NCBI GenBank assembly: GCA_043806645.1
Contig: JAZDGX010000129.1
Location: forward strand, 1-43,737
Direction of reading: 5' to 3'
DNA: 43,737 nucleotides
DNA from: Candidatus Eiseniibacteriota bacterium
GTDB taxonomy: Bacteria > Eisenbacteria > RBG-16-71-46 > CAIMUX01 > WJJG01
Shown here piece by piece: positions 28,021-31,390 of this stretch; position 1 is the first letter of the stretch, and each line of letters begins with the position of its first letter. The notes under the pieces are model-generated. The model was not told the origin of the DNA and did not search any database. It saw nothing but the letters and a program-made list of their open reading frames with translations. Made by a program: the position numbers and the translations under genes.

Positions 28021-28150
28021 GTCGCCGGAATCGGCCTGCGGCCCGCTAGCGCGATCCCGGCCCGGCCGCCGGAATCGGCCTGCCGCCCGTCCTCAAGCCA
28101 TGGAATCGGATTCTGCCGTCCGGTGTCCGCTTGCCGGAATCAGCCTGCCG
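28021..28150. repeat. Degenerate direct repeats GCCGGAATCRGCCTGC
   Basis: Copies at about 28024, 28068 and 28134; the last overlaps the EamA stop codon. Confidence 0.6.
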
Positions 28151-29018
28151 TGCGCTTCTGGATGATGATGCCCGCAATGATGAGCGCCAACCCGGCCACG
28201 GATGATGCGTAGATCTCTTCGCCCACGACATAGTGCAACAGCACCAGCGACACGAACGGCGAGAGAAAGACCAGATTCGACACCTGGGCCGTCGTGCGCG
28301 AGAAACCGAGCGCCTTCAGCCAGACCACAAACGTGATTCCCATCTCGAAGAAGCCGACGTAGGCGCCGGCGGCAAGTCCCGTCGCGTCCGGCCAGCGGGC
28401 TTCGCCCGTCAAGAGCGCATAGCCGAGCACGAAGACGAACCCGCAGGCGCAGCAGAGAAACAGCTTGGCCGTCTCATCGCGCCGGTCCCGCATGTTGAAG
28501 ATCCAGAAGAGCGCCCAGAGGATCGAACTGCCCAGCGCCAGGGAAACGCCCACGGGATCGGTGAACTGCAGCGCGAGGATCCTGCCCCGAGTCGAAATCA
28601 CGAGCACGCCGGCTAGGCTGATCAGAATCGCCAACAGGCTGGCCGGCCGGATCCGTTGCCTCAGGAGCGGGACGGAGAGCAACGCCAGCGCGAGGGCCCA
28701 CGTGTAGTTGAGCGGTTGCGCTTCCTGCCCGGGCAGCAGGGCGTAGGCCTTGAACAGCACGAGATAGTAGAGAAACGGATTGAGCAATCCGAGCAGGGCC
28801 GAGCGAAGATAGTCGCGGGCCGAATAGGTCGAGAAGAGGAAGAAGCGCCGCTGCAGGGCGAGCACACCCCCGAGAATCAGCGCCGAGGCGGCAGAGGAGT
28901 ACAACAGCAGCCGCACCGGACTGAGGCTGCGCAGAGACAGCTCGAACGCCGAGGCAACCGTGGACCAGAAGAGCACCGCAAGCAGCGCGTACGCGTAGGC
29001 CCTCGTCTGCCGGTCCAT
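28140..29018 (-). CDS. EamA/DMT family transporter
   Basis: About 10 TM helices in two repeats; FWSTVASAF, NPFLYYLVLFKAY, AQPLNYTW, FLSPFVS; start at MDRQTRAY. Confidence 0.9.
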   Translation of the reverse strand: MDRQTRAYAYALLAVLFWSTVASAFELSLRSLSPVRLLLYSSAASALILGGVLALQRRFFLFSTYSARDYLRSALLGLLNPFLYYLVLFKAYALLPGQEAQPLNYTWALALALLSVPLLRQRIRPASLLAILISLAGVLVISTRGRILALQFTDPVGVSLALGSSILWALFWIFNMRDRRDETAKLFLCCACGFVFVLGYALLTGEARWPDATGLAAGAYVGFFEMGITFVVWLKALGFSRTTAQVSNLVFLSPFVSLVLLHYVVGEEIYASSVAGLALIIAGIIIQKRTAG

Positions 29019-29243
29019 GCGGCAATCATGCCCGAGACGACGGACCCCCGCAAGGCCCTCGCCCGTCGCCTCGCTCCATTCGTCTCGTACTACTCGCCAC
29101 GCTCTCCTTGCCACGTTCTCCTCGCCTCGCCCCCCCCTCGCCGCACACCGGCCAGCCACACAACAAGGGCCGGGAGGAAAATCTCCCGGCTCTACGATTG
29201 ACATTCTCCGCGCGTCTTTGTGATGCCGCGGATACCGTGGCTC

Positions 29244-29963
29244 TTACTTCTCCGCCTTGGGCGGCTTCGGCGGCTTCCAATGCTCCCAGACCTTCCCCGT
29301 CAGCGAGGGCGCGGGTGTAAGGGCCGTCTGTCCCGGATACCATCCGGACGGTGTGACCTCACCGGTCTTGCGGTGATGCTGGAATGCCTGGAGCTGGCGG
29401 ATCAGCTCGGCCACGTTTCTCCCCACGGGAGGCGTGAGAATCTCGATGGCCTGGACGATACCGTCGGGGTCGATCAGGAATCGTCCCCGCACGTTCACCC
29501 CGGCTCCCTCGTCGTAGACGCCGTAGATGCGGCCGACCTTCCCGCCCGCGTCCGACAGCATCGGGAAGGGCACCCCGCCCTCGATCATCTTCGACAGCTC
29601 GTGTTCCTGCCACACCTTGTGAACGAAGTGACTATCGACGCTGGTGGCGAGGATCTCGGCGCCCAGCGCCTTGATCTCCTGATACCTGGCGGCAACTGCC
29701 GTCAGTTCGGTGGGTCAGACGAAGGTGAAATCACCGGGGTAGAAGCAAAGCACCAGCCACTTGCCCTTGTAGTCGGACAGCTTCACGACCCCGAAGGTGC
29801 CGTCGACGAATGCGTTGACCTGGAAATCGGGAGCTGGCTTGCCAACCTGAACGGCCATCCTGACCTCCTTCTCCTCTCGGTTTTCCCGCACGGACTCCGC
29901 CGCCGGCTCTTCACCGAGCGGCCCTTCCGCCGGTTTCACGCACGAGATTTTCCCTTCTGCCAT
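29244..29963 (-). CDS. prxU: Selenocysteine-containing AhpC/Prx1-type peroxiredoxin (Sec at TGA 29715-29717); alternative start at 29858
   Basis: ORFs 29715..29975 and 29244..29615 are one frame: [47 protein letters not shown]...[10 protein letters not shown]...GRNVAE. TGA sits at the peroxidatic Cys of the FTFVCPTE motif. Confidence 0.93.
29694..29707 (-). promoter_or_regulatory. Putative bacterial SECIS hairpin
   Basis: mRNA reads UGA-CCCACCG-AACUG-ACGG-CAGUU: 5-bp stem with a G-containing tetraloop 7 nt after the UGA. Confidence 0.65.
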
Positions 29964-30069
29964 CCTGCCTCCCATTTCGGGATCGGGACCACTGCGCCCG
30001 GCTACCAGCCCCCGGCCGCAGTCCCTCTCCGCGGATTACTCCCCATTCACGGCCTTCCGACGCCGGAGA

Positions 30070-30166
30070 CTCATCGCCTCTCGCCACGGAAGGCACCTCA
30101 TCGCACCTCGCCGCGGAAGGCACCTCATCGCCTCTCGCCGCGGAAGACACCTCATCGCCTCTCGCC
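30070..30166. repeat. 27-bp tandem repeat, about 3.6 copies
   Basis: CTCATCGCCTCTCGCCRCGGAAGRCAC units at 30070, 30097, 30124, partial at 30151; last copy is the 3' end and stop of the YgeY-like gene. Confidence 0.9.
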
Positions 30167-31390
30167 ATAGACCGCCGGAAAGCTCGCATAGAATGCAGCC
30201 GCCTTCACTAGATGATCGATCGGACACGATTCATCCGGTGCGTGCGCCTGCTCTTCAAAACCGGGTCCGAACCCGACACACGGAATGCCGTGCAGACCGC
30301 AAATCGCGACGCCATTGGTCGAGAAGATCCAGCGTTCCTCCCCGGCGTCCTCCCGGGCGCCGCCGAGGATCGCCGCGCGGGTCTCATGCGCGGCCCGCAC
30401 CGCAGGGTGGTCGCGCTTCACGATCCAGGCGGGAAAGACAGCATCGGTCGGATAGACCTTGCCCGTATACGCCGCCCGGGCATATCGCTTGACCCCGATG
30501 CGGATCGAGTTCTCGCGCGCGTCCGGAAGCTGGGTCACGGCGCTGCGAATCGCGCTCATCACCGACTCCCGCGTCTCGCCCCAGGTGAGGCGGCGGTCCA
30601 CATGCGCGCGGGCCACGTCGGGAATCGCGCACAGGCTCGGGCCCCGGCCGATGAAGTGGGTCACGGCCATGCTGCCCGGTCCGAGAAACGGATCGGCGGG
30701 CAGGTCGGGGGCCAAGCGTTCGATGGTCTTGACGATCTCCGCCATGCGGTAGATCGCGTTCCTCCCCCGCTCGGGAGCCGAAGCGTGCGCGGAGCGCCCC
30801 AGGACTTCGATCTCGATTTCCATGCGCCCGCGCTGTCCGCGATAGACGCGGCAGGCGGTGGGTTCGGTGAGCACGCAGACCTCCGGCTGCAGATGTTCCT
30901 CTCGGATCAAGTGCTGCCAGCAGAGGCCGTCGCAATCTTCTTCCATGACCGTTCCGGTCACGAACAGCGAGAATTCCCCCTCCAGATGCAGTTCCTTCAA
31001 GATGCGGCCGGCGAAGACGAGCGCCGCCATGCCCCCCTTCTGGTCGGCCGCCCCACGCCCCCACACGCGGCCGTCCGCGACCCTGCCCTCGTGGGGATCG
31101 AAGCTCCAATCATCGCGATTGCCGACATCGACGGTGTCGACATGCGCGTCCATGGCGATGCAGATGGGACCGTGGCCCACGCGGCCGATCACGCTGCCCA
31201 GTCCATCGACGCGCACCTCGTCGAAATGGAACCCTTCCATGGCGGCGCGAATGCGACCGATGACGCGCTCTTCCTGGCAACTGAGAGAGGGAATGCGGAT
31301 CAATTCAGCCAGGAATTCCGCCAGTTCATCCCGGTAGAGTTCGGCCCGCTCGAGAACCCGATCGTAGATGCCCCTGTCCATTCCCGTCAT
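30152..31390 (-). CDS. ygeY: YgeY-family M20 metallohydrolase (selenium-metabolism-linked)
   Basis: DAHVDTV, GRGAADQKGG, VMEEDCDGLCWQ, LTEPT, YRGQRGRMEI, FSTNGV, GFGPG.EEQAHAPDE. Start 31390 or 31381; the longer ORF N-terminus looks spurious. Confidence 0.88.
   Translation of the reverse strand: MTGMDRGIYDRVLERAELYRDELAEFLAELIRIPSLSCQEERVIGRIRAAMEGFHFDEVRVDGLGSVIGRVGHGPICIAMDAHVDTVDVGNRDDWSFDPHEGRVADGRVWGRGAADQKGGMAALVFAGRILKELHLEGEFSLFVTGTVMEEDCDGLCWQHLIREEHLQPEVCVLTEPTACRVYRGQRGRMEIEIEVLGRSAHASAPERGRNAIYRMAEIVKTIERLAPDLPADPFLGPGSMAVTHFIGRGPSLCAIPDVARAHVDRRLTWGETRESVMSAIRSAVTQLPDARENSIRIGVKRYARAAYTGKVYPTDAVFPAWIVKRDHPAVRAAHETRAAILGGAREDAGEERWIFSTNGVAICGLHGIPCVGFGPGFEEQAHAPDESCPIDHLVKAAAFYASFPAVYGERR

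Follow-up and report, generated by a model that had tools for sequence, protein, structure and literature searches.

The interval from 29244 to 29963 of the window (the whole 43,737-nucleotide stretch of DNA that was analysed) very probably constitutes one intact gene for a PrxU-type peroxiredoxin, in which an in-frame UGA at the peroxidatic residue is decoded as selenocysteine (Sec) by way of a hairpin lying directly downstream. The PrxU family has been known since 2001 and is represented by a curated model, and the selenocysteine call made in the original prediction is both correct and ordinary. Two reviews, PMC9312934 and PMC13188914, count a Sec peroxiredoxin with a TxxU motif among the bacterial selenoproteins that have been shown by experiment, and both refer to Sohling et al. 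(2001; Biol Chem 382:979). The features of the gene on which the following interpretation draws, all on the minus strand, are these:

29968..29973, minus strand: Shine-Dalgarno-like GGGAGG, 4 nt ahead of ATG 29963
29244..29963, minus strand: prxU, long form, 239 codons plus TAA with Sec as residue 83, from its translation, NF040737 and Pfam
29940..29942, minus strand: TGC encoding Cys8 on the N-terminal arm, which is Cys in each of the 70 long-form sequences aligned in A2
29864..29870, minus strand: internal Shine-Dalgarno AAGGAGG, 5 nt ahead of the internal ATG
29856..29858, minus strand: internal ATG (Met36), from which a short form of 204 residues might start
29745..29747, minus strand: TGC, Cys73, ten residues ahead of Sec (L-C-F-Y-P-G-D), invariant in A2
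29715..29717, minus strand: TGA, very probably encoding selenocysteine (Sec83) at the peroxidatic site in P76-x-x-x-T80-x-x-U83; TGA in 102 of 102 orthologues
29686..29705, minus strand: SECIS hairpin CUGACGGC-AGUU-GCCGCCAG, 8 pairs with A·C at 29702/29689, from covariation
29352..29354, minus strand: ACA, Thr204 (G-E-V-T-P-S-G-W), at the C-terminal resolving Cys site of typical 2-Cys peroxiredoxins
29169..29190, minus strand: terminator-like hairpin, 8 pairs of which 7 are G-C, with a T-rich tail, 54 nt past the stop; a consensus match only

Within the gene the TGA at 29717-29715 occupies the position of the peroxidatic Cys of peroxiredoxins, in the minus-strand codons TTC ACC TTC GTC TGA CCC ACC GAA, or F-T-F-V-[TGA]-P-T-E. 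Reading through it leaves the frame open from ATG 29963 to the TAA at 29246-29244, a span of 239 codons. The original prediction had described exactly this, a peroxiredoxin with an in-frame TGA for the Cys of FTFVCPTE and a frame continuing intact beyond it, and the boundaries it proposed, 29244-29963, coincide with the stop codon and with the best-supported start. That start, ATG 29963, agrees with the family pattern in lying 6-7 residues ahead of the arm Cys, and a GGAG, GAGG or AGGA word is found at -18 to -4 in 86 of the 95 orthologues with such a start. The splitting of the gene by standard gene calling was likewise borne out, as the ORF list under table 11 cuts prxU into a fragment of 86 aa that ends at the TGA (29715..29975) and one of 123 aa (29244..29615).

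Family membership is set by the protein read through the TGA, for which Cys was put in for Sec in profile searches. On NF040737 (peroxi_PrxU), an NCBIfam equivalog whose cut-off is 270 bits, the product scores 369.5 bits, with the match covering profile positions 2-231 of 233, N-terminal arm included; the same model scores 363.5 bits in a six-frame search. The AhpC equivalog TIGR03137 gives 182.6 bits, under its cut-off of 272, and Pfam returns AhpC-TSA (132.5 bits) and 1-cysPrx_C (34.8 bits). An AF2 model built from an alignment of 70 sequences has a mean pLDDT of 88.3, and the closest PDB structures to it are human Prx2, Prx3 and Prx4, with TM-scores of 0.89-0.92 (normalised to target), an rmsd of 2.2-2.7 Å and 40-44% identity. 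A sequence search of solved structures agrees with the fold match and aligns G-E-V-T-P-S-G-W to G-E-V-C-P-A-G-W of PDB 4fh8. The partners of the peroxidatic residue, P76, T80 and R159, are invariant in alignment A2, which comprises the window sequence, 16 relatives and 53 of 120 listed database matches picked by length. The modelled fold is of the Prx1/AhpC type, with P76, T80, U83 and R159 as its predicted catalytic set.

The TGA occupies the peroxidatic codon in each of the 102 orthologues examined, spread over many phyla (the window gene, the loci of 21 relatives and the best 80 of 578 relatives). Among the host genome and 60 relatives, a PrxU match over the cut-off occurs in 20 of the 61 genomes, each of these 20 with exactly one in-frame TGA, and placement of the TGA at the same codon was established in 21 relatives' loci. 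A one-genome-per-species scan recovered 578 relatives among 600 matched stretches, and of the best 80 of these 578 all 80 have TGA in this place, though the query had Cys there. Represented among the 80 are Nitrospiraceae, Desulfobacterales, Syntrophorhabdus, Anaerolineae, Acidobacteriota, Planctomycetes, Clostridia and other groups. The protein downstream of the TGA is conserved as well, at 53-70% identity over 70 sequences. Elsewhere in the host genome TGA is the commonest stop, ending 1323 of the 2086 open frames that reach 400 codons or more, and 5 of 17 orthologous prxU genes themselves end in TGA; the selA, selB, selD and Fdh-like matches of the host genome contain no internal stop. Because TGA is a common terminator and long conserved genes lack it internally, it is an ordinary stop in this genome that is recoded only locally.

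The hairpin that follows the UGA provides further evidence. The original prediction had placed a stem-loop 7 nt past the TGA; the hairpin itself was confirmed, and covaries across orthologues, but its 5' end lies 9 nt past the UGA. Its tip GU (29696-29695) sits between an A:U pair. In this sequence of 67% GC the folding energy is unremarkable, with z = -0.54 and 56 of 200 shuffles folding as well, and the case for the hairpin therefore rests on conservation and covariation across orthologues and not on stability. For 101 genes (98 distinct sequences) we aligned a 45-nt segment from the TGA onwards and scored a stem of columns 13-20 with 25-32, plus the loop-closing pair 21-24, against 500 shuffles and against slid partners. 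Over the 98 distinct sequences 85.7% of cells are paired, compared with 69.4% in shuffles, and 159 cells are altered on both sides, compared with 60.2, with none of the 500 shuffles reaching either value. Covariation scores 0.439, where shuffles give 0.141 (0/500 reach the observed value) and slid controls at most 0.147. The control slid by -3 still has a high pairing of 71.4%, since the stem consists of successive GCN codons, yet its covariation is only 0.096.

Individual columns illustrate this exchange of pair types. Pair 15-30 occurs as GC in 56 sequences, UA in 18, CG in 11 and AU in 5; pair 16-29 as UA in 46 and GC in 40, being unpaired in only 8 of 98; and pair 18-27 as GC in 66, AU in 19, CG in 9 and UA in 3. 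The loop-closing pair 21-24, GC in 56 and AU in 40, is paired in 99% of sequences, and of the tip letters the U is invariant and the G is present in at least 90%. As drawn from this alignment, the conserved element is a stem of about 7 pairs capped by R-GU-Y. We take this cap to be the form of the fdhF-type SECIS, whose GU is presumably read by SelB, and the position and GU tip of the prxU hairpin to be those expected of a bacterial SECIS such as the E. coli fdhF and Moorella elements. A comparable hairpin sequence after the Cys codon is absent from the 7 listed Cys-type Prx paralogues. Comparison of 29550-29850 with Rfam, allowing E values up to 10, returned no bacterial SECIS family, only the chance matches F6, snoR9 and PhotoRC-I.

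The hairpin of the window departs from that of most orthologues. In the window and its two nearest relatives, L040 of the same genus and L038 of the same family, ACG (Thr) stands where most have GCG, which produces an A·C mismatch at pair 16-29. All three share the AGUU loop and three extra lower pairs, and in L038 these extra pairs carry a compensatory change from CUG/CAG to UUG/CAA. Since the mismatch is common to the two nearest relatives it looks typical of the lineage, and it could weaken SelB binding.

The genome, a 258-contig assembly that is 87% complete with 1.6% contamination, encodes the apparatus that such decoding requires. Selenocysteine tRNA is found on C157, where ARAGORN reports SeC with anticodon tca and RF01852 scores 69.6 bits (cut-off 47), while selA on C249 scores 494.4 bits (cut-off 267.9), selB on C224 321.3 bits (cut-off 242.25; its open frame also contains a second, C-terminal match) and selD on C237 405.7 bits (cut-off 125). 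The presence of selA, selB, selC and selD had been predicted from the window, and all four are in the genome above curated cut-offs, on contigs apart from the window that are linked to prxU by binning only, which leaves room for a binning error.

Several other readings of the TGA have to be weighed against this evidence. A nonsense change of TGC or TGT to TGA might have ended an ordinary peroxiredoxin and left the two ORFs as remnants, an account that accommodates the split frame under table 11 and the unexceptional stability of the hairpin. We consider such a pseudogene extremely unlikely, as the TGA stands at the identical codon in all orthologues across many phyla, the protein past it is conserved, the hairpin covaries and the full Sec machinery is encoded in the genome. 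A functional gene whose UGA is not Sec, with the codon ending translation or being decoded as Cys or Trp by a near-cognate tRNA, and with some other role for the hairpin, would be compatible with the A·C mismatch in the window stem, and the Sec reading of the prxU UGA is itself sequence-based. Against this stand the hairpin position and GU tip, which we presume to fit a bacterial SECIS, the conservation of the hairpin only in TGA forms, and the presence of tRNA-Sec, SelA, SelB and SelD. The family is moreover an experimentally shown selenoprotein according to PMC9312934 and PMC13188914, and we regard a non-Sec UGA as very unlikely.

An error of sequencing or assembly, or a genome-wide reassignment of TGA (code 4 or 25), would be in line with the W that many JGI metagenome proteins show at the site, and is of negligible probability. 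In 101 other genomes this codon is likewise TGA, the prevalence of TGA as a terminator of long open frames and its absence from the interior of long conserved genes speak against reassignment, and in metagenome contigs of three runs from separate studies (X1-X3) no alternative letter reaches a share of 10% at 29715-29717, with few of these contigs bridging the site by 31 nt on both sides. The best-matching DNA sequencing run contained 0.29 of the sampled words of the stretch, and among the listed sequencing runs there were no RNA runs containing it. The reading that we retain is thus a selenoprotein gene of the PrxU family.

Decoding of prxU would proceed by the known bacterial mechanism, in which SelB carrying Sec-tRNA(Sec) would bind the hairpin 9 nt past the UGA through its GU tip, and the bound complex would deliver Sec at the UGA in place of termination. 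By analogy with other peroxiredoxins, the Sec83 selenolate would then reduce peroxide to water or alcohol and become a selenenic acid, which would in turn be reduced by thiols and ultimately by thioredoxin; the genome holds at least four thioredoxin genes, with 4 matches above 58 bits. Ordinary gene callers cut prxU in two or use the wrong code, with the consequence that counts for uncultured bacteria understate both their antioxidant capacity and their use of selenium. At NCBI, entries of the family bear the name PrxU or thioredoxin-dependent peroxiredoxin. In JGI metagenomes many of its proteins, from short contigs and named AhpC, have W at the Sec position, as if genes had been called under a code in which TGA is Trp.

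The arrangement of cysteines in PrxU bears on how the oxidised selenium would be recycled. The C-terminal resolving Cys of typical 2-Cys peroxiredoxins is replaced by Thr204, a position that is nearly invariant in A2 and that holds Thr in 72 and Cys in 3 of the best 80 of 578 relatives. Because this Cys is absent, the first resolving thiol is most likely Cys8, Cys73 or thioredoxin itself. Cys73 is Cys in 80 of 80 of the same best relatives, and ordinary Prx paralogues have F, L or M there. The arm Cys lies 27-42 residues ahead of the Prx domain in 96 of the 102 orthologues, at 32-34 residues in 73 of these 96, and is encoded by TGC in 54 genes and by TGT in 42. The linker varies in sequence and contains no in-frame stops, whereas its other two frames contain 170 and 100. 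This lack of in-frame stops and the use of both TGC and TGT indicate that the arm is translated and under selection. The AF2 model places it without confidence (block means of pLDDT over residues 1-40 of 52, 67, 53 and 70).

Six of the 102 genes are arm-less, namely L025 (cut by a contig end), L040 of the same genus, L042, L066, and L043 and L044, which belong to a divergent group. The prxU of L040 has the TGA and the same A·C/AGUU SECIS variant, with no arm motif upstream in any frame, and the arm is dispensable at least in this same-genus genome.

A second candidate start lies at the beginning of the domain. An ATG is found there in 93 of 96 genes, and a Shine-Dalgarno-like word precedes it in 88 of 93 orthologues, compared with a background of 13.7% of codon positions inside the Prx domain; AT-rich loci also retain AAGGAGG at the internal start. 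Counted from this ATG, Sec is residue 48. The founding member of the family, which Sohling et al. in 2001 are said to have described from Eubacterium (Peptoclostridium) acidaminophilum, has reportedly been published as a protein of about 203 residues with Sec47. The window gene probably yields the long form with its arm from ATG 29963, and a short form from ATG 29858 may also be made, as the conserved internal ribosome-binding site suggests. A joint reading of arm and internal start, which we offer tentatively and consider doubtful, is that the resolving thiol has moved to the arm Cys, with formation of a Cys8-Sec83 selenenylsulfide, and that arm-bearing and arm-less subunits arise from one ORF and possibly enter a mixed oligomer. 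The arm would in that event be a tether of nearly fixed length (32-34 residues) and free sequence. Together, the Cys arm and the internal start could explain the recycling of a selenium peroxiredoxin that lacks the usual resolving Cys. In the papers found by our literature searches, whose scope left outside subscription journals and Sohling et al. 2001, we found no description of the Cys arm or of the internal start, and searches of the same scope found none of Thr in place of the C-terminal resolving Cys.

Comparison with known systems places the window gene squarely within PrxU (NF040737). It passes the curated model, has Sec in the peroxidatic TxxU motif and a SECIS directly downstream, and shows no family-defining difference; relative to PrxU orthologues, its SECIS has the A·C mismatch and an AGUU loop where GGUC is commoner. 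Typical 2-Cys peroxiredoxins (Prx1/AhpC; human Prx2, 7kj1 and 1qmv; Prx4, 3tkq; AcePrx-1, 4fh8) share with it the fold, the Pro/Thr/Arg set and the 1-cysPrx_C region, whereas the window protein has Sec for the peroxidatic Cys, E-V-T-P for E-V-C-P, Cys for Phe at -10 and Gly for Leu at -6, adds an N-terminal arm with an invariant Cys, and does not reach the AhpC equivalog cut-off. We take the SECIS elements of E. coli fdhF and Moorella thermoacetica fdhA to resemble that of prxU in being hairpins just 3' of the UGA in coding sequence, and fdhF-type elements presumably share with it an apical loop, GGUC or AGUU, that exposes GU; unlike what we assume for the fdhF type, the prxU hairpin has no bulged U. 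A further difference from the fdhF type is that the prxU stem consists of the Ala, Ser, Val and Glu codons of the conserved helix after the active site, and constraints on protein and RNA therefore overlap there.

A second candidate selenoprotein was found in the genome at C203:4700-6500 (L142), with a TGA at contig positions 5471-5473 on the plus strand. Its product has a Thioredoxin_2 domain (PF13098, 34.6 bits, cut-off 27), a hydrophobic N-terminus and C-terminal TPR repeats, and reads N-U-S-P-C at the thioredoxin CxxC site, with an 8-pair hairpin bearing a CGUGC loop 14 nt past the UGA. It fits the known UxxC thiol:disulfide interchange type of selenoprotein listed in PMC9312934. Searches of the host genome with Fdh-alpha, CMD and Rdx gave no further TGA-bearing matches. 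A crude genome-wide screen for TGA followed by a hairpin with a 4-nt R-GU-Y loop and flanked by open frames on both sides gave 58 candidates, of which the 5 inspected looked like noise or real stops, and its loop filter missed the C203 candidate, whose loop has 5 nt. Taken together, prxU, the full Sec machinery and this second candidate mark the genome as that of a selenium user.

The selA gene is divided over two contig ends, C218:5594-5980 (profile 1-114) and C249:8704-9897 (profile 51-449), and these contigs probably adjoin. The selD gene is the C-terminal part of one 825-codon ORF (L018, C237 1056-3533, minus strand) whose N-terminal part is a class-V aminotransferase domain, NifS- or selenocysteine-lyase-like, the domains being Aminotran_5 (254.4 bits, residues 78-437), AIRS (519-626) and AIRS_C (639-815).

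In the gene context of the window, no redox-partner gene was found adjoining prxU. An EamA-type transporter gene and an M20 peptidase gene flank it, one on each side and both on the minus strand, with gltX, glnS, an rpiB-deoC fusion and an aldehyde dehydrogenase gene near by. Including the terminator-like hairpin, the region contains 2 sites of this kind, where shuffled sequence would be expected to give 0.8. Just upstream of prxU, at window positions 30070-30167, a 27-nt tandem repeat (3.6 copies, 90% matches) copies the final codons and TGA stop of the M20 peptidase gene, and its unit is unique in the genome. On the other side, the longest ORF of the EamA transporter gene (window 28140-29204, minus strand) begins within the prxU terminator hairpin; the EamA match begins only at residue 69, and the real start of this gene therefore probably lies further downstream.
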